A stretch of DNA of 64,000 bases. Origin: a virus. Below are positions 12,497 through 28,690 of this stretch, one piece after another. The stretch is taken from the IMG/VR virus record IMGVR_UViG_3300025314_000001, positions 32,001 through 96,000 of that record; one strand, 5' to 3'. Position 1 is the stretch's first letter, and every line of letters begins with the position of its first letter. Under the pieces are notes generated by a model, which worked only from the letters and a program-made list of their open reading frames with translations, was not told the DNA's origin and did no database searches. The translations under genes were made by a program, and so were the position numbers.

Positions 12497-13588
12497 TCAG
12501 TGAAGCTTCTCCACCGCAAACCGCAGGTTCTGCTCAATGCGGGGCCGGTGCTCTACAGGGAGCAGACCCATGAGCAACCGCCGAGCTACCCTTGCGCTCT
12601 CTTCGTACTTGCCGACCCAGTAAGCCGCGATAGAGAGCTCATCGAGGCTCCGCCACCGGTAGACGCCTTCGTCCAGAAATAGCGTGTCGTCCGGCTTATC
12701 GATGCGCGTAGCGGCGGAGGCAAACAGGTAAGCGGGCCAGAGGGCTCCGGTTTCCCGGTGCATCCGTGCGAGCTCGCAGAGCGGCTCGGCGCGCGTCGGG
12801 CGGACCTGGTAGGCCCGGAGATAGGCCTCGATGGCCTCGGCTCTGCGCCCCAGGTGTTCGAGGTTCCGCGCTACCTGAAACTCAGAGTACCAGACCTCTT
12901 CATCCCAACCGCCCATTTGGGCTCGGCGCCGGTAGGCTTCTAGCGAATTCTCGTACTGCTTGGCGTCCCGCCAGCTCTGGCCGAGGTAGAAGACGTAACG
13001 CGAGTTGTTCGGTTCCTTCTCGAGCGCCTTGGTGATGCCCAGGGCGTGCCGCGTGTACTTCTCCTCCGGGCTCAGCTGGTTCTGCGCCGAGTCGAAGAGG
13101 CCGTGCACGAGTGGCCCCGGCAGACGAGATTCAGTGTGCGGGGCGTCGCAGTAAATGGCCTCGTGGTAGGCGCCACGGTACTCCCACGGGGTCGAGCTCC
13201 GGACCAGCTTCGTCAGCCAGAACCGTACTTCTGAAGCGCCAGACCGTAGCTGCAGCTGGTAGCCGTCGTGTTCGAGCTTTGGCCAGCTGAAGCGCTCTGG
13301 AGCGACAAAGACTTCGTCGGCGTCGAGCACCAGGATGTAGTCGGCTTTTCCGCGCGCCAGTTCCAGAGCCTCGGTTCGGTTGGTGCCGAAGTCCTGCCAG
13401 GGGCGCCGGTGGAGCTCTCCGGGCTTCTGGGCGCCGGCCATGAACTCGCGGATGACCGCGTCGGTTCCGTCCGTGGACTCCAGGTCGTCAACGATGACCC
13501 AGCTATCGATGAACGGCGCGACGGAGCCGAGGCAACGCCGGATGACGTGCGCCTCGTTCTTCACGATCATGTTGAGGCAGACGCTCAT
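12497..13588 (-). CDS. GT2 glycosyltransferase with TPR repeats
   Basis: VCLNMIVKNE, STDGT, WQDFGTNR, LDADE (DxD) and YHE motifs, followed by TPR-like repeats. Confidence 0.9.
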   Translation of the reverse strand: MSVCLNMIVKNEAHVIRRCLGSVAPFIDSWVIVDDLESTDGTDAVIREFMAGAQKPGELHRRPWQDFGTNRTEALELARGKADYILVLDADEVFVAPERFSWPKLEHDGYQLQLRSGASEVRFWLTKLVRSSTPWEYRGAYHEAIYCDAPHTESRLPGPLVHGLFDSAQNQLSPEEKYTRHALGITKALEKEPNNSRYVFYLGQSWRDAKQYENSLEAYRRRAQMGGWDEEVWYSEFQVARNLEHLGRRAEAIEAYLRAYQVRPTRAEPLCELARMHRETGALWPAYLFASAATRIDKPDDTLFLDEGVYRWRSLDELSIAAYWVGKYEESARVARRLLMGLLPVEHRPRIEQNLRFAVEKLH

Positions 13589-14106
13589 CCAAACGTTCCG
13601 TACCGACTCGGCTTGATGGCGTGCATCGAGAAGAATAGGTTTCCGCCCTGCCGCTGCGTCCACATCTTCCCGAAGTCGGCCTTGAAGAGCCACCGGTAGT
13701 CGGACATCCAGGTGTGGCCGACCTGAATCCAGTATTGCTCCTGATCGAGAAAGACCAGCGTCTGCTCGGTGAGCATCCGGCGGTGCCCAGGGTCGCCCCA
13801 GGCGTGCTCATGGCTCGCCAGCGGGACCGAGGCCGCAAACAGACCGCCCGGCTTCAGGATGCGCCAGAACTCCGTGAACTGCTCGAAGAAGAACCGGTAG
13901 TCCCCCTGCATACCCGTGTGCTCGAGCACTTCGTAGGCGTGAATCTCGTCGAAGGCGTCCGCCTCGAAAGGGAGGGGTAGGCGCTCGAGGTCATGCAAAA
14001 CGTCGGGCTTGTGGTCGGGGTTGATGTCGAGCGTGACCAGCTTCGTCCACGGCGTATTGCCGACGCGCTTTTCGTGCAGCGCGCCGCAGCCAAGGAGAAG
14101 TTCCAT
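13585..14106 (-). CDS. Class I SAM-dependent methyltransferase
   Basis: LLLGCG, HDLERLPLPF, EVLEH, RILKPGG, DPGH. Confidence 0.85.
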   Translation of the reverse strand: MELLLGCGALHEKRVGNTPWTKLVTLDINPDHKPDVLHDLERLPLPFEADAFDEIHAYEVLEHTGMQGDYRFFFEQFTEFWRILKPGGLFAASVPLASHEHAWGDPGHRRMLTEQTLVFLDQEQYWIQVGHTWMSDYRWLFKADFGKMWTQRQGGNLFFSMHAIKPSRYGTFG

Positions 14107-14108
14107 GA

Positions 14109-14219
14109 TTACTCCCCCCGCGAGGCGCATCGACGCGCTCGTCCGCGTTCAATTAGTGCGCGGTACTGCTTGCCTGTGAATCGTTGCAGATCATCGAATA
14201 CCAGGACGCTGATGGACAT
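14109..14219 (-). CDS. 36-aa mini-ORF resembling the TerL Walker-B segment
   Basis: MSISVLVFDDLQRFTGKQYRALIERGRARRCASRGE; ATG overlaps the bfr stop and the ORF fills the intergenic gap. Confidence 0.55.
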   Translation of the reverse strand: MSISVLVFDDLQRFTGKQYRALIERGRARRCASRGE

Positions 14220-14692
14220 CAGCCCCCCGCGACCTGATTCGCCAGGTAGTTGTCGATTCCGATCTGGGCAATCTGGTCAAGCTGCTGCTCGCTCCACAGA
14301 AGGTGGTCTTCTTCGGACTTCAGATGCTCCTCGAAGAGCGCCCGGCTGCCTTCGTCCTTGAGCTCCACGGCGAGCAACACGGACTCGTTGTACTTGGATA
14401 CGGCGTCGGCTTCCGCCGCCCGGTCGTTCTCGAGCATGGCCTTGGGTTCCGCACCGATCCGGATCTCGTTGAGCTTGCTCACGATGGGCTTTCCCTCGAG
14501 GAACAGGATCCGGTCGATGAGTTCATCGGCGTGCCCCATCTCGGAGCGAGCGAGCCCCATGACGTGTTTTGCCAACGCCGCGTATCCCCATCGGCCATAC
14601 ATGGCCGCGTGTACCACGTACTGGTTGATCGCCGTTAGCTCCTCGGAGAGACGCTCGTTCAGAGCTGCGATGATTCTTGGGTTGCCTTTCAT
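14219..14692 (-). CDS. bfr: Bacterioferritin
   Basis: MKG...ELTAINQY...RILFLEG; ferroxidase ligands E18, E51, H54, E94, E127, H130 and heme ligand M52 at canonical positions. Confidence 0.95.
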   Translation of the reverse strand: MKGNPRIIAALNERLSEELTAINQYVVHAAMYGRWGYAALAKHVMGLARSEMGHADELIDRILFLEGKPIVSKLNEIRIGAEPKAMLENDRAAEADAVSKYNESVLLAVELKDEGSRALFEEHLKSEEDHLLWSEQQLDQIAQIGIDNYLANQVAGG

Positions 14693-17316: not shown

Positions 17317-17414
17317 GGTGTTGCTCCAGGTCCAGAGGAATGGAAAGGGGTTGGCCTGGACGGCGCCGCGCCGCAGGGAGTCACCCCAGCGCGGCGCCCT
17401 CCAGAGCGGCTTGG

Positions 17415-18455
17415 CTACTCGGCGATGTCCGCGATGTACCCGAAGGCACCACGGCGCTTCAGACAGAGCGCCACGGTCGCTTCCATGACGAACTGCACGT
17501 AGCTGCCCAGACGTCCCAGCGGGTAGATCCTGATCGGAATGCTCGACGCGTCGAACACGTTTCCGTCGGCGGTACCCCTAGCCTGGACGATCTGTTGCAT
17601 CGTCTGTTCCCCGAAGGGCGCCGGGGGCAGAAACTGCATCTCGCATTGGTCGGGGTTGAAGGCGACCATGTATCCCGCGCTGCAGTCGATGTCGTCGTCG
17701 ATTGGACGACCTCTCCAGAACAGGTCCTCGGCTCCGAGGTTCGCAGCTCCGCCCATGCCGGCAACGACGGTCTTCTGGTTGAAGAGCCCTTCGTACTTGG
17801 TCTTCACTCCGGGCGAGCAAAGGAAACGCTTCGGCGTGTTGGCCTGGCCGGCGTGCGTTCTGATTCCCTGGTTCAGCTGGGCGATGAGGTCCAGCGTCAG
17901 GGGGCGGTCCGTTCCGCCATTGGCCAACACGGTGCTGACCCAGTAGGTCGAATCGGTGATTGCCGCATAGGCGCCAGACGACGCAATGGCTCCGCCCAGG
18001 AGACCCACGCAGTTCGCGTTCCCTGATCCGTCGGTTCCATCGCCGGTCCACATGTCGGTATTGATGGCCCGAGCGATCGTGGCCGCACCTTCCATGATAC
18101 GGTTGGCGAGCTTGTTCCCGATGATCAGGGGGTTACGTTGCCCGGTCGACGCCAAGACATCGAGCTCGGTCGTCGTGAAACCGAAGGTGTGCCGATAGAT
18201 GCCCCAGCTCAGATAGGCGTTGTCTTCGACCATCTGCGTCGCGTCGCTGGCAGCCACGGTCGCGCCTTCGGCAACGGTTGCGGCGGTTGCACCACCGAGC
18301 TGGGCAGCCCACGCGGCTCGAGGACCACGGGGAACTCCGGTGGGGGCCGGCACCAACGACAGGAGTTTACACTCCTTGTTCCACGTGCGGGCGATATCGG
18401 GCCCGAACTGATCGACGAGAATTGCCGCAGCAACGGTCAGGGTTTCGACAGCCAT
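17415..18455 (-). CDS. Major capsid protein
   Basis: 346 aa after the scaffold gene; VAEGA, DMWTGDG, WRGRPIDDD; strong RBS. Confidence 0.85.
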   Translation of the reverse strand: MAVETLTVAAAILVDQFGPDIARTWNKECKLLSLVPAPTGVPRGPRAAWAAQLGGATAATVAEGATVAASDATQMVEDNAYLSWGIYRHTFGFTTTELDVLASTGQRNPLIIGNKLANRIMEGAATIARAINTDMWTGDGTDGSGNANCVGLLGGAIASSGAYAAITDSTYWVSTVLANGGTDRPLTLDLIAQLNQGIRTHAGQANTPKRFLCSPGVKTKYEGLFNQKTVVAGMGGAANLGAEDLFWRGRPIDDDIDCSAGYMVAFNPDQCEMQFLPPAPFGEQTMQQIVQARGTADGNVFDASSIPIRIYPLGRLGSYVQFVMEATVALCLKRRGAFGYIADIAE

Positions 18456-18496
18456 GATGACCTCTTCTGGGCGGATCCCCGCCCTCTTGGCTGGGC

Positions 18497-19288
18497 CTAC
18501 TGGCCCAGCAGATTCGCAAACGCGTTACCCACAACCTCTTGCGGGGTGCGCTTTTCACCTGCAGCTGGCGGGAGTCCAGCGCGTTGTCCCGGCTTCTCGC
18601 CGGATCCCGAAGCCCCGACAGGGGGCAGGTACAGTTTCGCCTCTGGCGTCTTGATCCAGGATGAGAGGCCCTGAGTTAACGGGAGTTCTCCCTTCTCGGG
18701 GTCCTTGTAAACGAGCGTTTCTCCGTCTTCGGAGTAACCGATGCGCTTCTTGCCGTCGTAGAGGAACAGCTCCGCCGCTTCGGCGGCCTCTTCCGCGGTG
18801 ATGCCGTTCTTGCCGAGTTCCTTGCGGAGGGCTTGCCGCAGGTTGAGCTCGGTCCGGGCTTTCTTCTCGGCGTCGCGCTGTTGCTCAGCCGACTTGAACT
18901 TCGTGTCGAGCTCGGTGCTATGCTTGGTCAGCAAAGCGATCTGCTTCTTGAGCTCGATGACTTGTGGATCGTCGGGCTTCTCGCCCTGCTTACCCTTGAG
19001 CTCCTTGCCCTTCGTTTCGTCCTCTTCGGCTCGCTGGGTCGGCTGAAGTTCGGACCTCAACTTCGCTTCGAACGCATCGAAGGTCGGCTTCAAGGACTCG
19101 CCCACGGCAGACCCAATTCCTGCAGTGAGCTCCTTCTTGAGCCGCGTACCGAGGCCCGTGATCATCTCGGTTTGCTGAACTTGGAATCCCTCGAATCGCT
19201 TCCCGATGTCGTCGTTCAGCGTCTTGAGGTCATCGGTTCCTAGAACTTCGTGCTCGTTTCCAAACGCATCCTTGATCTTGACGGTCAT
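18497..19288 (-). CDS. Capsid scaffolding protein
   Basis: Charged coiled coil with C-terminal YLPPVGASGSG. Confidence 0.75.
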   Translation of the reverse strand: MTVKIKDAFGNEHEVLGTDDLKTLNDDIGKRFEGFQVQQTEMITGLGTRLKKELTAGIGSAVGESLKPTFDAFEAKLRSELQPTQRAEEDETKGKELKGKQGEKPDDPQVIELKKQIALLTKHSTELDTKFKSAEQQRDAEKKARTELNLRQALRKELGKNGITAEEAAEAAELFLYDGKKRIGYSEDGETLVYKDPEKGELPLTQGLSSWIKTPEAKLYLPPVGASGSGEKPGQRAGLPPAAGEKRTPQEVVGNAFANLLGQ

Positions 19289-19425
19289 GTGCCATTCACC
19301 TTGTCGGTGCCCTGGGATGGAAAACGACGTCCCAGCCGCGTCGCTCGGCTGCTGTTAACCCGTGCTCACTCGTTGCCGCGAACGAGTGCGGGGGTGACTT
19401 TTTGTTGGCCGCCTTACGCCGGGGC

Positions 19426-20076
19426 CTAAACTGGGCGCTCTACGCCAAGGATCGGATTCAGGTACTCCGAGGCTCTGCGTTTCGGTCGCTCACTGACTAC
19501 TGAGGTCAGGTAAATCGAATTCGCGGGCTGTGCGAGCTCGTACTCGATCCAGTCCGGCAACGGCTCGAACAGGCGCTCCTTTTCCACGGAAGCGACAATG
19601 CGCGCTGGGGCCGTTGGAAGGTCACGTAAACGATCCACAATCTGCTTGTACTGTTCTCTCGTGAACCTGGTCAGATGATCGAATGCCACGATGTTGAGCT
19701 CGAGCCCGCAAAGCTCGTTTCCGGTTTCTACGACTTTGCCAATGAACGTGCCCCCATCGGGGAACACGAACATCGGGAAAGGATCACGTCGGAATGAGTA
19801 CTTCACCCACTCGAATGCTTCGGTCGCCTGCCCCACCAGGAACTGTAAGTGGTGCGGATTGGTTGACACGAGCGCCGCGCGGTAGCTGCTGCCGTATCCC
19901 CTTCGCAGCCTGCTCGCCATGACGGACAGAAGCCCCATCGTCTTTCCGGTGGCACGCGGACCGACAATGAAGCTCTGACGGGACTTACTCTCGATGAGCG
20001 CCTGCTGGTGAGGATATGGGTGGAAGTTGAACATGGTTCTTTTGTAGATCTGGCGGCTTGTGCTGACCGGGCTCAC
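19426..20076 (-). CDS. ATPase-domain-only terminase large subunit paralog
   Basis: PYPHQQ, Walker A GPRATGKT, FPDGG, Walker B IVAFDH; no nuclease domain. Confidence 0.7.
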   Translation of the reverse strand: MSPVSTSRQIYKRTMFNFHPYPHQQALIESKSRQSFIVGPRATGKTMGLLSVMASRLRRGYGSSYRAALVSTNPHHLQFLVGQATEAFEWVKYSFRRDPFPMFVFPDGGTFIGKVVETGNELCGLELNIVAFDHLTRFTREQYKQIVDRLRDLPTAPARIVASVEKERLFEPLPDWIEYELAQPANSIYLTSVVSERPKRRASEYLNPILGVERPV

Positions 20077-20103
20077 TCGCGGCCGCGGGCGAGTGGCGGG
20101 GAC

Positions 20104-20970
20104 CTAAGCGCTGAAGAGCGGTCCGCTGCTGGCGCTTCGTCGCCGGTGATACGTCTTGAACTCTGCCTGTCTCTCTTCGCGGAATACCGGAGACTTCAGA
20201 CGCTCATTGCATTCCGGGCAGACTGGCCACGTCGCGACCAGACTCGCATCAGAGACCTTGAAGTTGTGGTCGATGTGGCCAACGAATCGTCCCTCTGTGA
20301 ACAGGTCTACCCCTCCGCAGCAAGGGCATTTTCCGCCTGACGCATAGAGATAGTCCAAGTGCAGCTTCTGGGTCAGCTTGGAAGGGTTCTTACGCTTCGC
20401 GTCGAGGCACCGGAGATTGGACTCTTTGAGTCCGTCTACGTCGGTTCTCAGCCGCGCAAGTTCATGTCCCTGCCGATGTTGCTCGTCCTGAATGGTTGCC
20501 AGAACCGGACCGATCCTTCGCGCAGTAGCTTCCCCAATCATCTCGCATGACTCGGGGGCCAGCCGGACCATGGCCTCTGATGCCTCTTGCCCAAGCTTCC
20601 CCCGTCGCACAGCTTTGAGGGTTCTAGCGAACTCCTGCCGGAGAACCTTTGCCGTGTCCGATCGGACCCGCATAATGACTAGGTAGACTGCCTCTTCTGG
20701 CAGGTAGCATTCGTCGAAGTCGTAGATTCGCTGACCATCGCTTCCTGGATGGCCGGTTCTTTGGCGTCCGGATTCTGGACGCCAAAGAACCCCGCAAATT
20801 TCACTATCTGCCTCCAGTTCTCGGACCGCAGACCGGACCTTTCGTGGCTCTCTTCCGAGCTTCTCGGCTAAGGCCGTGCCAGAGACCCAGTACTCGACGT
20901 CTCCATCCAGTTCACGAGGCAGGAAGGCCCATCCATCACGCAGTACCAGTGCGGAGTTAGGTTCGTTCAT
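20104..20970 (-). CDS. Rha/antirepressor-like DNA-binding protein fused to an HNH-like domain
   Basis: VSGTALAEKLGREPRKV...CYLPEEAVYLVIMR at the N-terminus; CPCC...HIDH...CPECN at the C-terminus. Confidence 0.6.
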   Translation of the reverse strand: MNEPNSALVLRDGWAFLPRELDGDVEYWVSGTALAEKLGREPRKVRSAVRELEADSEICGVLWRPESGRQRTGHPGSDGQRIYDFDECYLPEEAVYLVIMRVRSDTAKVLRQEFARTLKAVRRGKLGQEASEAMVRLAPESCEMIGEATARRIGPVLATIQDEQHRQGHELARLRTDVDGLKESNLRCLDAKRKNPSKLTQKLHLDYLYASGGKCPCCGGVDLFTEGRFVGHIDHNFKVSDASLVATWPVCPECNERLKSPVFREERQAEFKTYHRRRSASSGPLFSA

Positions 20971-21146
20971 TACGCTTCCCAAAAAGCCGGGCGTCCGTCG
21001 CCCGGGGTAGAATCGCCGCTATTCACCGCGTCCGTTGGGGTTCGGGCTCGGCTAGGCCAGCGGCGTGGCCCGTAGTGTTAGCGTCCCAGCCCCTGAGAGA
21101 TCCTCGGCGCCAGAGTTCCTGCGCTTGAAGCGGGAACCGGCCGTGT

Positions 21147-21692
21147 CTACTCAGCAGCGTCGGCGAGCGGCTCCGGACTCGGTGCCCGGCATTCCGGTGA
21201 CAAACCAAACGTGTCGTCTATTTTCGACCCCAAAAACCCGACACGAATCAGCGCAGATTGCTGGTGCTTGGTCAGCTCTGTGAGCTCCACTTGGAGCTTC
21301 CCGACCTTGTCGTCCCACGATCGTTTCTGCGACATCTGGTCCTCTAGCAGGGCCCAGATTTCTGCTAGCTCAGAGAGCTTTTGCCCCCAAGAGTTACGAT
21401 GCTGCTCTAGTTTACCGATAACATCCCCAGCCCACTGGATTCCCGTCTCCAAAGACGTGCAATCTCTCTGTATCGTGTAAGTTCCCCCTGGACGTTGGTT
21501 CAACACCACAGCAACGGTTACTTTGCACTTGTTCGTGTGAATCGACATCATGCTTCGGATGTCGCCGGGGTCATATTTGTCGGAACTCCAGTTCCAATAA
21601 GCGCTTACACCACCGTGGTTCCACGTGCATACCCTCCAGGTTCTACCTTGGTGTGCTTGCTGTTCTTCGTGGATGATGCTGTTCTCGGACAT
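21147..21692 (-). CDS. Hypothetical protein (moron)
   Basis: RBS before ATG 21692; visibly less GC-rich than neighbours. Confidence 0.5.
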   Translation of the reverse strand: MSENSIIHEEQQAHQGRTWRVCTWNHGGVSAYWNWSSDKYDPGDIRSMMSIHTNKCKVTVAVVLNQRPGGTYTIQRDCTSLETGIQWAGDVIGKLEQHRNSWGQKLSELAEIWALLEDQMSQKRSWDDKVGKLQVELTELTKHQQSALIRVGFLGSKIDDTFGLSPECRAPSPEPLADAAE

Positions 21693-21730
21693 AGACTTCT
21701 CCTGTTTACCCGTCGCCAAACGGGCATGAA

Positions 21731-22972
21731 TCACTCTCGTTTTCCCCGCGGACCCGGAGGAGGGTAGAGCCTCGGGCGGGTCGCTCCCGCGCTCGACCGG
21801 AAACGGCTGCCCCTGCCGGCGGGCTTCTGCATGTCGTTCAGCCGCTTCAGAAGCGCTTCCGGGCTGCTCTGCCGCACGCCGGGGCGAATACCCTGTGGCC
21901 CTTGCGTAACGGCCCTGATGTAACGGAGGGCGCTTCGGTCCTGGATCTGGAAGACGTTGACAGGGTTGGTCGCCGCCAGCGCGTTGCGCGCTTCCGGTGT
22001 CATCCTTCCCCGTGGAGAGCGCGCCCCAATGAGTTCTCGGAGCTCAGCCTTGATCTCGCCGTAGTCGACCTGGAGCCCCGGGAGCCGGCGCCGCATCGCC
22101 TCGGGGATGACCATGCTCACGACGGCGCACCGGCAGCGGTTGTGCAGTGGTACTTGGGCGTCTTCGTCGAATGGCTTGTCAAACGGGACCATCTGGGCAT
22201 CGAGTCTCCAGCAGACCGCGCAGGTCCGACCGTCCAGGAACGCCGACCAGACCTTGAAGGTCATGGCGGTCCAGCCCCATGGGAGGCCGATGTCCGAGTC
22301 GGTGACCTCGTCGACCCGGGGTCGTGTTCGTCGGGCTGCCTCGTCCCGGAGCCGAGATATCTCGCCCCAGGCGCTTCGGTGCTCGTGGCCGTAGGCCTCG
22401 AAGGCCTGGTAGCTCGCGTGCCCCACGAGCTTGTCGGAGAGCGTTCCGCCGGCGCGCTTCAGCGCTTCCTCGAGTCGCCCCCCGTCGCGCCCCCAAAGCG
22501 AGGTCCCGAGCATCATTGCGCTCGCCCACTGCGACACCGCGGAGCCGGTGGCGATCGTTGCGGCGAGCTCGTCGACCTGTACCGCCTCCCAGACCTTGGG
22601 GGCCGCTGGGATCGTCCAGCCGAATCCCTTGGCCTTCCCGTAGGCCCCGACGATGGCCAGCTCGGACGCTACCTGACCCTGGGCGAGGTCGCGGGCCGCC
22701 ATCCGGCCCCGGGTCGTAGCCTCCCAGAACTGGTCTTCGAGCTGCCCGGTCTCCTGGTGGATGGCCTGGCGAAGGAACCGCTGGGACTCGTCGGCGTCTC
22801 GCGTCTTGGCCCGGCGCCGGTTCGCCTCGATGAGCCTCCCCGTCGCTGCCTGCGTCGCCTCGGTCATCATGCCGAGGCTGACCGCCTCAGCGGCGACGAC
22901 CCGTTGAATTGCGTCCCGGTGCTGAGCCAGCAGACGCTTTCGGGTTTCCTCGCTCAGTACCTTCGGCGGCAT
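21731..22972 (-). CDS. Head morphogenesis protein (SPP1 gp7 / Mu gpF-like)
   Basis: KVWSAFLDGRTCAVCWRLD...PLHNRCRC. Confidence 0.85.
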   Translation of the reverse strand: MPPKVLSEETRKRLLAQHRDAIQRVVAAEAVSLGMMTEATQAATGRLIEANRRRAKTRDADESQRFLRQAIHQETGQLEDQFWEATTRGRMAARDLAQGQVASELAIVGAYGKAKGFGWTIPAAPKVWEAVQVDELAATIATGSAVSQWASAMMLGTSLWGRDGGRLEEALKRAGGTLSDKLVGHASYQAFEAYGHEHRSAWGEISRLRDEAARRTRPRVDEVTDSDIGLPWGWTAMTFKVWSAFLDGRTCAVCWRLDAQMVPFDKPFDEDAQVPLHNRCRCAVVSMVIPEAMRRRLPGLQVDYGEIKAELRELIGARSPRGRMTPEARNALAATNPVNVFQIQDRSALRYIRAVTQGPQGIRPGVRQSSPEALLKRLNDMQKPAGRGSRFRSSAGATRPRLYPPPGPRGKRE

Positions 22973-24596
22973 TTCGCGGCTTTTCCTCTTCGAGCTCTTC
23001 GTTGCCCTCTTCCGTCCCCTCTTCTCCCGCTCGGAGCGCAGCCTCACGAAGCGCGTCGGTCATGGCCTGGTTCTCGTCGATCCCTTCGTCGATTTCCTTC
23101 TGAATCTGCACCCGCGTCTCGGGCGAGCAGTGCGGGACCAGGGACAGTGCCAGACTGGTCTTGTACTCTTTTTGGAATGTGCTCGACGGGATCGGAATCG
23201 TCTCCACCGTCAGTGCTTCATCGACCAATTCTCCGCGCTCGTTTAGCCGGAACTTCGAGCACCCGTACACGGCCCAGACGACTGCTTCTCTGCGCGCATC
23301 ACTGAGACAGCTGTAGACCTCTTTGGTGGCACGGCGAACGAACTTCCCGAGCGCACCCAAGACCTTCTCGGCTGACGACGAATCCTCTTTTTTGCTCTCC
23401 CCGGAGCGTCCGACCGTGGACGCCGTGTTGGGCAGCGATAGCGCCATCGCCGTTACGGTCAGGTAGATCTCTTCCTTGAGACTTTGGAGGCTCTTGTCGG
23501 CAATACTGAAGGCGTTCCCGCTCGGACTGGCATAGCCGATCTCATCCTTGTCCCCGATGGGTACGATGCCTTTCTCAAGTAAGGCCTGTAGGGTCTTTTC
23601 TCCGCGCTTCTCGTCCTCTCCGGTGGCACTCGGAAGTGCTTCTCCGACTCCTCGGACTTCCGAACCCTGTCGATACCACGGGATTTCGATCAGATTCCTG
23701 CCTATCGCACCGAAGAGATCGGAGCGCCGCTGGAAGTGCTCTTCGGCTAACGCTCCGATCTTATTGCCCGCCCAAAGCCCATCCGGTAGCTCAAGCACTA
23801 CGATCGGAATGCGATTAAACGAGGTCGTTCCCTCACCCACCTGGAACATGATCTCGTTGTCGCCGATGGGATCTCCGATCTTGTGGAGTTTTGACTCGAG
23901 CACCACGAACTTGGCAACCCCGCCCTCCATGTACCAGCACTTGAATCGGCACTTGTACTCGGTGCGCTCGTTCCAAGGGTCAAGGCGCTCGATGAGTTTG
24001 CGCATCGTGATGGCCCATAGCCACTTGCCATCATCTCCGATTCGCCAATCCAAGAGCTCTTGCTGGTCCAGTCCCTCGTCCCAGCAATACCCGCGCCCCG
24101 CCCCCGTCTTCTCTTCTTGGGCCCGGTTCGTGATCTCTGCGCCAACAGGGGGGAAGTCGAGATAGATGACGCCACGCTTGAAGAGCAGCGCCTGCGTCAC
24201 GATGCGGCGCATCACTTCTGCGAAAGGGCTTCCGGCTCGGTCCGCGTCGTTTGCGAAGTCTGGCCAGAATGCCTTGTCCGGTAGCTCCCCCGGAGTGTTC
24301 GGGTCTTTGGCGTCCCCCGCTGCGGTTACCGAAAGCTCTTCCTCGAAAAGCGCCGCGACCAAGTAGTCGACGACCTGGCCAAAGTAGTTGATGTACGAGA
24401 CGCGCTGAATCCGGTACTCGTAAGTCTGCTGCGTCTCGTTGATCGCTTTCTCGATGAATTTTCGCGCCTGCTCCTTGAGCTCATACCCGCCCTTGTAGAG
24501 CAAGCGGATGCGCTGCCAGATCTCCGGCTTGTTCTCCGGATTCTGCTGCGACAGCTTCTTGAAGCCGACGCTGGAAACAGACTCGGCGAAGGCCAT
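22887..24596 (-). CDS. Portal protein
   Basis: LLYKGG, YEYRIQRVSYINY, DADRAG, SGESKKED; position after TerL. Confidence 0.85.
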   Translation of the reverse strand: MAFAESVSSVGFKKLSQQNPENKPEIWQRIRLLYKGGYELKEQARKFIEKAINETQQTYEYRIQRVSYINYFGQVVDYLVAALFEEELSVTAAGDAKDPNTPGELPDKAFWPDFANDADRAGSPFAEVMRRIVTQALLFKRGVIYLDFPPVGAEITNRAQEEKTGAGRGYCWDEGLDQQELLDWRIGDDGKWLWAITMRKLIERLDPWNERTEYKCRFKCWYMEGGVAKFVVLESKLHKIGDPIGDNEIMFQVGEGTTSFNRIPIVVLELPDGLWAGNKIGALAEEHFQRRSDLFGAIGRNLIEIPWYRQGSEVRGVGEALPSATGEDEKRGEKTLQALLEKGIVPIGDKDEIGYASPSGNAFSIADKSLQSLKEEIYLTVTAMALSLPNTASTVGRSGESKKEDSSSAEKVLGALGKFVRRATKEVYSCLSDARREAVVWAVYGCSKFRLNERGELVDEALTVETIPIPSSTFQKEYKTSLALSLVPHCSPETRVQIQKEIDEGIDENQAMTDALREAALRAGEEGTEEGNEELEEEKPRNAAEGTERGNPKASAGSAPGRNSTGRRR

Positions 24597-25236: not shown

Positions 25237-26874
25237 TCAACTCATGGTCGGCAGAAACCTAGACCGCATCGCCCGGTCACGTTCCGCCTGTTGGGTGTTG
25301 CAGAGTTCGTCGTGCAGGGCCGCCAACGCATCCACGATATCGTCGTGGTCGTCTTTCTTGGGGTCCCCGGTGAACGACAGGACCTCGTTCAGGAAGACGT
25401 CGACCCATTCGCCGTAGAGCTCAGAGTCTTCTCCGGGCACGAATATGTGTCCCCGTTTCCCTTCGATGGGTTTTCCTTCGTCGTCGGTCGGAACGTTCCA
25501 AGTGGATGAGACCGGGGTTGCGCGGACAAGCTTGTCGGCCGTCGCGCGCAGGGCTCTCAGATAGGTTCGGTTGTTGGCGTCACAGAGGTGCTTTGCGATG
25601 AACTGCGCAGTGCCCTTCTCTCCTCCGCCACCGATGTACCATCGGATGATTCCCCGGCGTTCAGTCAGCTTCGCCTTCATCGTCAGGACGAACGACGTTG
25701 CCTCGACCTGCTTTCGCTCCATCCCGACAACGTAGATGTCACTTCCGAAGATGTAGCCGCGGAGCAGCACCGACCAGTCGGATTTGGTGCCCACCGTGTA
25801 GGCGAGGTCGGCGCCGTAGGCGATCGCGTACCCGCCTTCGCTCGGGAGCCTGGTGAAGCGCTGAACTCCATTAAAGAGCGCTCCCTCGACGGTCTTGACG
25901 AGCCAGTTACCGTCGCGGAGCTGAAGGCGCCTGACGCGGTCTGGAATCGACGCAACGCGCGCCCCGTACTTCGGGTCTGCCCTCGGGTTGTCCGCGAGCA
26001 TTGCCGGAATGAAGGTCCGCGAAAGTGACTTCGGTGTGCCGTCTGGGTTCAGGACCCGTTCTCGGCAGTAGACCTCGTTCCCTGCATCATCGAGGTAGAC
26101 GTGCCAGATTTCTCCGGGCTTGGCCGGAGGAAGCTGTCCAGCCTCGTCTTTGCGCTCTGTCAGTCCCTGCGCTTTGAAGTTCGGGTTGAGCCACGCCCCC
26201 CAGCGTCGGAAGACCCACTCGTGCCCGTTGCCGCCGGGGTTGGTGGTAGCCCGCACGTAGACCGGGAGTCCAGGACGACTTGATCGGTTTCGTCCAATGA
26301 GGAAGGTGTACTGCTGCTCGGTGAAGTGAGTGAGCTCATCGAAGATCAGAAGGTTGATTTCCCAACCGTCGTAGTTCTTCCAGTCGTCCTCGTTGTTGCA
26401 GTGGCTGAGACTGACCTCGGCACCGCTCGGAAACGTCCACCGATAGTGAGGGCTCTGGACCTTCGTCGCACCGGGGCACACCGCCGGGTATAAATCCCAG
26501 CTCTTGTGAATGAGGTCGTCGAGATCTTTGCTTTGGCGACGCAGGATGAGAGTCCGCATCCCCGGCAGGTGACCCCACTTGAGCGGGAACGCGACGGATG
26601 CGGCGGATTTGCCACCCCCAGCGGCCCCGCCATACAGTACCTCATCGCAATCGATGTCCCAGAAAAGCTCCTGAGGGCTTTTCCCGTTGTCGTAGGTGGG
26701 CCTGCCTTCGACGGGCGGATTCGGATTCCAGACTGCGGAGACGTCAAGCGGAACCGGGTCCGACTCTTCGTCCTCAACCGCCCGCAGTCTCGCCAGCCTC
26801 GCGCCGGCGATCGAGCTCCATGAGGTCTTCGAGGATCCCCTGGAGAATCTTTCTTGCAAGAACCCCTTTGACAT
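25237..26874 (-). CDS. terL: Terminase large subunit
   Basis: YGGAAGGGKS, LLIFDELTHF, ATTNPGGNGHEWV, GADLA, HDDIVDAL. Confidence 0.95.
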   Translation of the reverse strand: MSKGFLQERFSRGSSKTSWSSIAGARLARLRAVEDEESDPVPLDVSAVWNPNPPVEGRPTYDNGKSPQELFWDIDCDEVLYGGAAGGGKSAASVAFPLKWGHLPGMRTLILRRQSKDLDDLIHKSWDLYPAVCPGATKVQSPHYRWTFPSGAEVSLSHCNNEDDWKNYDGWEINLLIFDELTHFTEQQYTFLIGRNRSSRPGLPVYVRATTNPGGNGHEWVFRRWGAWLNPNFKAQGLTERKDEAGQLPPAKPGEIWHVYLDDAGNEVYCRERVLNPDGTPKSLSRTFIPAMLADNPRADPKYGARVASIPDRVRRLQLRDGNWLVKTVEGALFNGVQRFTRLPSEGGYAIAYGADLAYTVGTKSDWSVLLRGYIFGSDIYVVGMERKQVEATSFVLTMKAKLTERRGIIRWYIGGGGEKGTAQFIAKHLCDANNRTYLRALRATADKLVRATPVSSTWNVPTDDEGKPIEGKRGHIFVPGEDSELYGEWVDVFLNEVLSFTGDPKKDDHDDIVDALAALHDELCNTQQAERDRAMRSRFLPTMS

Positions 26875-27304
26875 GCTGGTTCAGGTGCTTTTCGACGATG
26901 TCGAGAAACTCCTCTTTCGCTTGCTTGACCTCGACATTGACCTTCTGCCCGTACTTGCCGGGCCTGGTCCGCTCAAGCAGGAAGGCCAGCGCCGTCCATT
27001 GCCCATTACGAATAAGATGTTCGTTGCCGTTGGCGTCGGTGGTGAATGCGTCTTGACCCGCTTTTTGGATGGCTTCGAGCGCCGTCTGCTCGAACATTGC
27101 CTGAGCCTGGTTGACCTTCGTGGCGAAGTCCGTGTAGGCGTTCGTTCTGCCTTCACTCAACGCCTTGTCTCCCCAGCGCTTCCACTCGTAGATAAGCTGG
27201 CGAGACAGCCCGCATCGCTCAGCTGCTGTGGATAGCGGCATCCCCTTGTTGGCGCAGACGCAAATCTTGTTCGTGGTCTCTGTGTCGGGTTTCTGTGCTG
27301 CCAT
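26774..27304 (-). CDS. terS: Terminase small subunit
   Basis: HTH (AAERCGLSRQLIYEW), WTALAFLLERTRPGKYG; directly upstream of TerL. Confidence 0.85.
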   Translation of the reverse strand: MAAQKPDTETTNKICVCANKGMPLSTAAERCGLSRQLIYEWKRWGDKALSEGRTNAYTDFATKVNQAQAMFEQTALEAIQKAGQDAFTTDANGNEHLIRNGQWTALAFLLERTRPGKYGQKVNVEVKQAKEEFLDIVEKHLNQHVKGVLARKILQGILEDLMELDRRREAGETAGG

Positions 27305-27307
27305 GGA

Positions 27308-28027
27308 CTATTCCGCGGCGGTCGACTCGGGCTCTCCGGCTTTGCGCATTCGGAAGATCTCACGGAGCTTGTCACCGGACTGGAAGCGGTTCGCCTCGAG
27401 TCCAAGCTCTTCCAGAAAGGCCGCCGCGTCTTCTGGCGACTTGAACACCGAGACGAAGTAGAAGTCCGTGGTGTTGTAACGAGCCCCAGCCTCGGCCGTC
27501 TTCGCAACAACCTCACGCGCTGCCCGTAGCCGGTCGGCCATTTCCTCAAGCTTTTGTGCCTCGGCGTTGTCGACCTGGTCTCCGAGCATCCGCATGACGT
27601 CGGCATCGTCGAATCCGGTAGCCTCCAGGTCGAGCCCCGGCAGCATCTCGTTGAGCTTCTCTGGATCCCAATCGCCCTGAGCGGACCAGTTGTTCAGGAG
27701 CAGGTTCGCTTCCTTCTCCTGCTTTTCGTCAAGGTCGACTACCGCAACAGTCAGCAGATAGTCTGGCTTCGTCTCCATCTGGTCTAGAATCGAGAGCCGC
27801 TGGTGCCCGCCAACGAGGTTCCCTGTGCGCTTGTTCCACTGCACGGGCCCCAATAGTTTCAGCTTCTTGATCCCGTTGCGAAGCTTCTTTCGTGCCGCAT
27901 CGCTGATGCGGCGCGGGTTGTAAGGCGCATTCTTGAGCTCACTCCGTCGCCTTACCTCACAGACGAATCCTTCGAATTGCGTCAGCGTGAGCTCTTCGAG
28001 TGAACTAGCCGAGTCCATAGAACTCAC
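27308..28027 (-). CDS. ParB/Srx N-terminal domain protein
   Basis: APYNPRRIS, WNKRTGNLVGGHQR, GDWD. Confidence 0.85.
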   Translation of the reverse strand: MSSMDSASSLEELTLTQFEGFVCEVRRRSELKNAPYNPRRISDAARKKLRNGIKKLKLLGPVQWNKRTGNLVGGHQRLSILDQMETKPDYLLTVAVVDLDEKQEKEANLLLNNWSAQGDWDPEKLNEMLPGLDLEATGFDDADVMRMLGDQVDNAEAQKLEEMADRLRAAREVVAKTAEAGARYNTTDFYFVSVFKSPEDAAAFLEELGLEANRFQSGDKLREIFRMRKAGEPESTAAE

Positions 28028-28676
28028 GTCGCGCCGGGACTACCCCGACGTAGGGAAAGACCTGGGCAATCCGATCGAAGTCATCAGGGTAGTTGTCAAA
28101 GAGCCACAGCAATCGAGGGATCGACAGATCAATCCCGGTCGTTTGGGTGCCCTTCTGAGCGTCTGGCAGCGGTATGTTCCGAGCCTTCAAGTACGCCAGC
28201 ACGTCGAACTTGTTCCACCCGACAATCGGGCAAATCGTCTTCGTTCTCTGCGCCTTCCGCGCGTTGGATGCGCGGAACATGTAGTCGGCTCGACGCTGCC
28301 CGTTGGCTATCAGCCGAATTCCCGTGTCTTGCGCAGCCACCTCGTAGATATCCTGAATGGAGAGCTTCTCGAGGTCGCTGTATTGGTCGCGCACAGGGCA
28401 GAAGATCTCGTTCTGTAGCGACACCAAGACTTGCGGGTGAATGTACTCCCGGACCGTTACCCCCCAGCGCTCCTTCGCGTAATCCATGAGCGGCTGACAG
28501 CACCGCAATCCAGGCAGGAACGACATGAAGAAAGCCTCCATCCGCTTGAAGGCTCTCGAACAGAGGTCGATGACAGCGAGACTGTCTTTTCCGCCTGAGT
28601 AGGCGACCAGAACAGCCTCGCTCTCATCCGCGGCTTCGCGCAGGATCCTTTCGGTCTCCTGCCATGGCCGCTCCAT
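28005..28676 (-). CDS. PAPS-reductase-like PP-loop ATPase
   Basis: VAYSGGKDS, GQRRADYMFR, PIVGWNKFDVLAY; lacks the C-terminal ECGxH motif. Confidence 0.85.
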   Translation of the reverse strand: MERPWQETERILREAADESEAVLVAYSGGKDSLAVIDLCSRAFKRMEAFFMSFLPGLRCCQPLMDYAKERWGVTVREYIHPQVLVSLQNEIFCPVRDQYSDLEKLSIQDIYEVAAQDTGIRLIANGQRRADYMFRASNARKAQRTKTICPIVGWNKFDVLAYLKARNIPLPDAQKGTQTTGIDLSIPRLLWLFDNYPDDFDRIAQVFPYVGVVPARREFYGLG

Positions 28677-28690
28677 CGCTTTCGGCAAGT

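Follow-up and report, generated by a model that had tools for sequence, protein, structure and literature searches.

A selectively maintained, nuclease-less terminase ATPase domain with a Walker-B histidine in the head module of an uncultured soil phage

Short, split and mutant large terminases

No protein of tailed phages is more conserved than the large terminase (TerL), which is also a major target of pattern-recognition immunity in bacteria, being sensed by Avs/STAND defences. The glutamate of its Walker-B motif is needed for ATP hydrolysis. In jumbo and T4-like phages split terminases are known, in which the ATPase and nuclease halves are separated by introns, inteins or homing endonucleases. 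Genes for a "truncated large terminase" were noted in the Rak2-like jumbo phages (CBB_274) and also in phiM12 and phiN3, their function being left unexplained (PMC5259590). In phage lambda, 11 substitutions of the catalytic E179 of TerL, Asp and Gln included, were all lethal, and the E179A and E179Q variants folded, assembled and bound ATP tightly, with an ATPase activity of at most 3% and no DNA translocation (PMC6379665). The only published small TerL-ATPase-like phage protein linked to Avs is Ksap2 (Bas60_220), which activates the KpAvs2 sensor and does not block it (PMC11564622). A literature search for a published TerL decoy found none.

The gene described here, referred to as mini-TerL, encodes a protein with the same fold as the canonical TerL ATPase domains (Sf6 gp2, the T4 gp17 N-domain, P74-26 TerL; PHROG 979, psiM2/Felix O1-type). 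The canonical motif order (Q motif, Walker A, Walker-B Asp, C-motif strand) is kept, and the length corresponds to the whole ATPase domain of Sf6 gp2. Mini-TerL differs from canonical TerLs in having His in place of the catalytic Glu, in lacking the RNase H-like nuclease and in standing beside a complete TerL. In comparison with its own TerL type, the stretch from the W..LDP helix to the last strand is shorter by about 45 residues.

Like mini-TerL, CBB_274 is a short, nuclease-less TerL-N paralogue located beside a full TerL, and its catalytic Glu is lost, the sequence being YDS (Glu->Ser) as compared with LDE in CBB_275. However, CBB_274 belongs to the T4 gp17 type, its gene immediately precedes terL, and the Walker A Lys is missing as well (RGAGLST vs RQMGKTT), whereas mini-TerL is of the PHROG 979/psiM2 type, is separated from terL by 5.2 kb and retains the whole P-loop. 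The similarity between the two proteins is limited to a 29-aa HSP (E 0.002), and they do not form a common sequence family. The lambda E179A/Q proteins resemble mini-TerL in the loss of the catalytic carboxylate with Walker A and the Walker-B Asp intact (PMC6379665), but they are laboratory mutants of the full-length enzyme and include no His, while the change in mini-TerL is natural, conserved and accompanied by the loss of the nuclease half. The likeness of Ksap2 to TerL is weak and only structural, whereas the homology of mini-TerL to TerL is evident from the sequence and extends to the nucleotide-binding motifs. Split terminases share with mini-TerL a short ORF with the TerL N-terminal sequence only and an adjacent gene of the homing-endonuclease type. 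In contrast to them, a complete, motif-intact TerL is encoded elsewhere in this phage, there is no matching nuclease half and the catalytic residue is missing. The idea that mini-TerL is one half of a working split TerL was rejected, as a full TerL with FDE and a nuclease is present and the mini copy is without the Glu.

A second, unrelated family of short nuclease-less TerL-N proteins was found in an exhaustive protein search (described below). Its members, P0009 (228 aa) and P0019 (283 aa), are 45% identical to the canonical TerL P0011, have FDN in place of FDE in Walker B (Glu->Asn) and both end with FAKA. Judged from their motifs, short nuclease-less and presumably dead TerL copies recur, with His in mini-TerL, Asn in P0009/P0019 and Ser in CBB_274. 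The phenomenon of truncated TerL is therefore not new, and mini-TerL is an independent variant of it, derived from another TerL type, located away from terL and having an intact P-loop and a conserved His.

The mini-TerL gene and its product

The analysed window of 64,000 nt comprises bases 32001-96000 of a 106,685-bp IMG/VR virus record representing an uncultured soil phage of ~107 kb. The record carries direct terminal repeats and was judged complete. The GC content of the window is ~62%. The phage record is held by soil metagenome runs, and more distant relatives were found in sediment and wetland runs. The genes of the head module are located on the minus strand (Table 1). The module is flanked at 12497-14692 (minus strand) by auxiliary genes encoding a ferritin-like protein (Pfam Ferritin, E 5e-29), a small methyltransferase and a GT2 glycosyltransferase with TPR repeats.

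Table 1. Features of the head module and of the mini-TerL locus (positions in the window)
Feature	Coordinates	Strand	Basis and remarks
ParB-like and PAPS-reductase-like genes, adjoining	27308-28688	-	Upstream of TerS; ParB-like protein PHROG 9353/620
TerS	26774-27304	-	
Resident full-length TerL (P0002, 545 aa)	25237-26874	-	Walker B LLIFDE and nuclease domain; PHROG 979, E 9e-57; Pfam Terminase_6N, Terminase_3, Terminase_6C
210-aa ORF		-	Between TerL and portal
Portal	22887-24596	-	
MuF-like head-morphogenesis protein	21731-23047	-	
195-aa ORF	21147-21734	-	No family match; GC3 0.63, atypically low
Terminator-like GC hairpin with T-run	20977..21005	-	Related contig joins at its end (20987); HNH insertion just after the hairpin
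Bro-N + HNH/Endo VII-like gene (P0004)	20104-20982	-	Pfam Bro-N, E 0.006; PHROG 1035 endonuclease VII, E 1.4e-4
35-nt hairpin, second copy	20067..20101	-	80% identical to first copy; immediately follows the HNH stop and precedes the mini-TerL ATG by 33 nt; within the 952 nt that the relative lacks
Mini-TerL ORF	19426-20076	-	Between the MuF side and scaffold/MCP
Mini-TerL coding sequence (P0006, 202 aa), stand-alone TerL ATPase domain	19426..20034, stop included	-	ORF translation, homologue starts, PHROG 979, hhalign, fold matches
Walker A/P-loop GPRATGKT, residues 25-32	19939..19962	-	
Walker B strand IVAFDH, residues 115-120	19675..19692	-	Asp kept; His at the catalytic Glu position
Most conserved block ARIVASVEK..LFEPLPDWIE, residues 144-164	19543..19605	-	C-motif strand and next helix
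35-nt hairpin, first copy of direct repeat (family D4)	19360..19394	-	Just downstream of the mini-TerL stop; inside the stretch colinear with the related contig
Scaffold-like protein	18497-19288	-	
Major capsid protein (MCP)	17415-18455	-	

Only two TerL-like ORFs, the resident TerL and mini-TerL, are present in the whole genome besides one short fragment. The latter is a 36-codon ORF at 14109-14219 (minus strand), starting with MSISVLVFDDLQRFTGKQYRALIERGR..., which represents a third copy of the TerL Walker-B strand and helix with a Glu->Asp change. In BLASTP it matched the resident TerL with E 7e-8 (50% over 28 aa) and mini-TerL with E 5e-7. Its ATG overlaps the stop codon of the ferritin-like gene (TGATG) and its end overlaps the methyltransferase gene.

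A sequence-only reading of the window had described a second TerL encoded by an intact ORF of ~200 aa, with a Q motif, the GPRATGKT Walker A and the segment IVAFDHLTRFTREQY aligned with LLIFDELTHFTEQQY of the full TerL, with the Walker-B Glu replaced by His and with no nuclease domain. All these features were present and one correction, concerning the start codon, was made. The ORF is open for 216 codons from a GTG, but the start shared by the family is an ATG at 20034, from which a protein of 202 aa is made. The ATG was chosen because all homologues begin with MFNFH and the similarity to the related contig described below stops exactly at 20034. This Met is also the first residue of the homologues P0007 and P0008.

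The Q motif (HQQ) is located upstream of Walker A, with Q10 invariant. In the P-loop G25, P26, T29, G30, K31 and T32 are invariant in the three homologues, and the P-loop Arg is missing in P0008 (GPTDTGKT). The segment IVAFDHLTRFTREQY was aligned with LLIFDELTHFTEQQY of the resident TerL by BLASTP with E 6e-6. Both D119 and H120 are invariant in 3/3 full-length homologues and are aligned with the FDE of the canonical TerLs P0002 and P0011. A seven-sequence alignment with canonical TerLs revealed as invariant the adenine-binding Gln, the Gly-Lys of the P-loop, the Walker-B Asp, the LT.FT..QY helix, R137 and the C-motif strand.

The assignment to TerL was confirmed at the level of families, profiles and folds. 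PHROG 979 (terminase large subunit), the family of the resident TerL, was matched by mini-TerL (P0001) with E 2e-6, by P0007 with E 1.6e-6 and by P0008 with E 3.9e-10. A profile-profile comparison (hhalign) with the alignment of the resident TerL and its relatives gave 97.6% probability and E 3e-12 for residues 21-164 against 78-229. The match to TerL is thus far beyond chance. The best Foldseek matches of the mini-TerL model were the TerL ATPase domains of P74-26, Sf6, D6E and T4, and the ESM Atlas search gave a TM of 0.78 to TerL-N clusters; short TerL pieces of jumbo phages were among the structural neighbours. The protein has the ASCE P-loop ATPase fold of the TerL N-domain, and no indication of a non-terminase fold was seen. 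Searches of Pfam (terminase models included), NCBIfam and PADLOC returned nothing meaningful for mini-TerL, and a PDB sequence search returned P-loop noise only.

Residues 6-199 of the model align with residues 4-195 of Sf6 gp2, which places the end of the protein near the end of the gp2 ATPase domain. No nuclease domain was found after mini-TerL: there was no Terminase_6C match, and the in-frame downstream sequence reaches a second stop after four codons. Mini-TerL is a complete minimal ATPase domain, not an arbitrary fragment.

The mini-TerL family is small. It comprises three full-length members of 195-205 aa with 65-67% identity and no disruptions, and one partial allele (run X7), all from soil, sediment or wetland metagenomes. 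When 1.84 billion representatives were searched exhaustively with phmmer, no more than 4 matches were obtained, one of which was a spurious repeat protein, and no match was found by tblastn in 50,697 deposited phage genomes. Pattern and protein scans of viral, genome and metagenome contig sets revealed no relatives of mini-TerL; a single genome-contig match was rejected as a chance match inside an unrelated 552-aa ORF. No close relatives were found in contig scans with MCP, portal and a scaffold homologue, and the contig scan with TerL returned short contigs only, none of which reached the mini-TerL locus.

With respect to its origin, mini-TerL aligns with P0011, a canonical TerL of 465 aa of the psiM2/Felix O1 type, over 161 aa with 28% identity (E 1e-10), and the two proteins have the RGYG..YRA motif in common. 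By contrast, BLASTP of mini-TerL against the resident TerL gave a single 28-aa HSP limited to the Walker-B segment. The DNA similarity of the Walker-B segments of mini-TerL and the resident terL is low to modest. A recent duplication of terL within the genome was rejected on account of this low DNA similarity and the closer relationship to the foreign TerL P0011. Because of the 161-residue alignment and the motif shared with P0011, as opposed to the 28-residue match to the resident TerL, mini-TerL seems to descend from a foreign TerL, similar in broad type, whose ATPase domain would have been captured and then remodelled.

Divergence and selection at the locus

Logan contigs were compared over the region 17400-23000 of the window, which gave a 20,960-nt contig (run X5) encoding P0007. 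The contig was colinear with the window and mini-TerL occupied the same place, between MuF and scaffold/MCP. The head genes were similar, with 93% nucleotide identity for MCP and scaffold (148 differences in 2,028) and 88% for MuF. The similarity within mini-TerL was uneven. The N-terminal 137 nt were 93% identical, the part encoding residues 47-143 was of the same length and diverged below the 80% threshold, and the part encoding residues 144-193 was 85% identical, although in residues 165-180 as many as 18 of 47 bases differed (pS 0.52, pN 0.29). The whole proteins were 67% identical. In this comparison mini-TerL diverges several-fold faster than its flanks.

The neighbourhood of the gene also varied. 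The region of the 195-aa ORF (21075-21827) was replaced in the relative by 659 unrelated or diverged bases, and the 27 bases after the mini-TerL stop by 196 bases. The 952 bases with the Bro-N/HNH gene were missing and 33 bases were found instead, with the joint at 20034->20987. Because the 195-aa ORF region is replaced in the relative, everything between MuF and scaffold can be regarded as an accessory island of variable content within the head module. Since its neighbours are swapped (195-aa ORF) or absent (HNH) and the gene itself is syntenic, mini-TerL is retained in a plastic slot.

The Bro-N/HNH gene behaves as a freestanding, mobile homing-type endonuclease gene inserted directly upstream of mini-TerL, as indicated by its absence from the relative. 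A 64%-identical HNH homologue, P0013, was found on a different contig from the mini-TerL homologues. The HNH gene and mini-TerL were also considered as a fixed two-gene unit, which was rejected because the former is absent from the P0007 contig and P0013 lies on another contig.

A 35-nt GC-rich hairpin is present in exactly two copies in the 106,685-bp genome, one on each side of mini-TerL (Table 1), against 0.06 expected by chance in the window. The hairpins fold no better than shuffled controls (z -0.5 and -1.0) and have no T-runs; they may represent RNA 3' ends, recombination sites or scars of homing. The pair was considered as the borders of a mobile cassette around mini-TerL and rejected, as the upstream copy belongs to the HNH insertion, the gene is syntenic without this insertion, the folding is poor and T-runs are missing.

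The partial allele from run X7 shares the X5 version of residues 165-180 and is nearer to the window in residues 113-143. This patchwork of X7, X5 and window sequences indicates that alleles are being shuffled, and the pS of 0.52 in residues 165-180 points to such shuffling and not to positive selection. A 101-nt contig of depth 2.7 from run X7 joins position 19733 (the base after codon 100) to 20987. If this joint is real, it may hint at a lineage without codons 1-100, Walker A included, and without the HNH gene.

To evaluate selection, substitution-only neutral simulations were started from the sequence of the window. With indels not counted, no more than 3.6% of the runs (per pair) had reached 67% identity with the frame still free of stops. 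For codons 144-193 the P0007 allele was rebuilt from the listed contig differences and three single-base changes implied by P0007; the rebuilt allele reproduced the P0007 protein and the reported 22 differences exactly. The Nei-Gojobori dN/dS for these codons was 0.43. The most conserved block, residues 144-164, differed from the related allele by only 4 nt, 2 of them synonymous (dN/dS 0.27). In codons 1-45, 4 replacement and 5 silent changes were found (dN/dS ~0.24). The pooled partial dN/dS was ~0.38 and the excess of silent changes was significant against neutrality (p = 0.008). These values cover 95 of the 202 codons, the better-conserved ones; the middle third (residues 47-143, ~55% identity) may be under much weaker constraint.

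The base composition of mini-TerL at the three codon positions (GC1/2/3 = 0.59/0.42/0.71) is like that of TerS and portal, which are core genes of the phage, whereas the GC3 of the HNH gene (0.62) is, like that of the 195-aa ORF, atypically low for the phage. Based on the intact ORFs in three lineages, the simulations, the dN/dS values and the GC content by codon position, mini-TerL is kept by purifying selection and is not decaying. The neutral decay that would have undermined the sequence-only reading was not seen among the homologues, in which the motif islands are also conserved.

Possible roles of mini-TerL

Mini-TerL retains the residues for nucleotide binding, namely the Q motif, the Walker A Lys and Thr and the Walker-B Asp. 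Due to the lack of the catalytic Glu and of the nuclease domain, it is predicted to bind ATP without powering or cutting DNA. By analogy with the lambda E179 variants, it very probably binds ATP and is essentially non-hydrolysing. The description of mini-TerL as "hydrolysis-dead" in the sequence-only reading is therefore a sound deduction from the lambda data, although His was not among the 11 lambda substitutions and residual or altered catalysis with His may occur.

A protein that neither hydrolyses ATP nor cuts DNA would most likely work by binding. Mini-TerL may thus be a TerL look-alike, occupying something that normally recognises authentic TerL. In a setting of conflict it could block or soak up a host TerL sensor, or the packaging parts of a rival phage or satellite. 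Such a setting is considered the likeliest because of the plastic accessory slot, the several-fold faster divergence of the gene than of its flanks and the closer similarity to a foreign TerL type. The leading, still tentative explanation is that mini-TerL is a selectively maintained, ATP-binding, non-hydrolysing TerL mimic, which would act by binding to a putative partner, most likely in conflict. The fast mosaic evolution in an accessory slot fits a role in conflict in general and does not single out Avs, against which the sequence-only reading had suggested a decoy.

In a more specific version of the mimic explanation, mini-TerL would be produced in excess, as part of the scaffold/MCP transcription unit, and would serve as a natural decoy or sponge. 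The protein would fill the TerL-binding pocket of a host STAND (Avs1-3-like) receptor, or the TerL partners of a rival element, without triggering or completing them, and the dead truncated terminases of unrelated phages would form one convergent class of counter-defence or interference proteins. This version is quite unlikely to hold.

A rival explanation, which the sequence-only reading had raised as a dominant-negative regulator, is that mini-TerL controls the packaging motor of the phage itself. The dead ATPase domain would dock on the portal or join the TerL ring and serve as a brake, a placeholder or an assembly factor in the timing of packaging. TerL forms its ring through the ATPase domain, and the location of mini-TerL is consistent with such a role: the gene belongs to the late head operon, with portal/MuF on one side and scaffold/MCP on the other, all on one strand, and its position is the same in the relative. 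It is also consistent with this role that the lambda Glu mutants still assemble (PMC6379665). However, mini-TerL evolves much faster than the flanking head genes, the other occupants of its slot are swapped or absent, and its sequence is nearer to a foreign TerL than to that of the phage itself. Moreover, a subunit poisoning the motor would be costly when co-expressed with the capsid genes, and the absence of the family from the 50,697 deposited phage genomes argues against a general requirement for it. Regulation of the phage's own motor seems less likely than a role in conflict and, taken by itself, is unlikely.

Alternatively, mini-TerL could be a non-functional relic, i.e., the 5' part of a terL, foreign or formerly resident, that recombination or homing-endonuclease traffic left behind and that is open by chance or for translational coupling only. 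The mobile HNH gene directly upstream, the high divergence relative to the flanks and the possible 5'-deleted allele in run X7, a weak observation, would be in line with such an origin, and the third Walker-B fragment at 14109-14219 indicates that pieces of terL are scattered in the genome. Against this stand the intact frames of equal length in three lineages at 65-67% identity, for which the neutral stop-free chance is 3.6% per pair before indels are considered, and the pooled dN/dS of 0.38 (p = 0.008). The nucleotide-binding residues are invariant, likewise the 21-residue block, which carries synonymous changes, and the protein ends cleanly at a domain boundary. A relic is quite unlikely on these grounds.

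The least probable explanation is that mini-TerL is still an enzyme, a P-loop NTPase or kinase with His120 or another residue in catalysis, which could serve as a slow switch driven by ATP or as an auxiliary subunit of a motor. A Walker-B Glu is dispensable in many P-loop kinases and GTPases. The strict conservation of Walker A, the Walker-B Asp and the Q motif would be expected of a protein for which nucleotide chemistry is important, and the His is conserved, not variable, unlike the Asn in P0009 or the Ser in CBB_274. However, the ASCE fold of TerL depends on a carboxylate (all 11 lambda substitutions being lethal and the Ala and Gln variants retaining at most 3% ATPase) and the P-loop Arg, the partner of the catalytic Glu, is lost in P0008.

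The comparison of the psiM2/Felix O1-type protein described here with P0009/P0019 and with the proteins of the Rak2-like jumbo phages suggests that presumably non-hydrolysing short TerL copies arose independently. With its intact ATP-binding site, mini-TerL is a clean counterpart, found in nature, of the Walker-B trap mutants with which the biophysics of motors is studied. If it is true that such proteins block TerL sensors or the motors of competitors, they would constitute a new class of phage counter-defence or interference proteins. If they tune the phage's own motor instead, they would provide the first example of a terminase ring with a natural heteromeric element.
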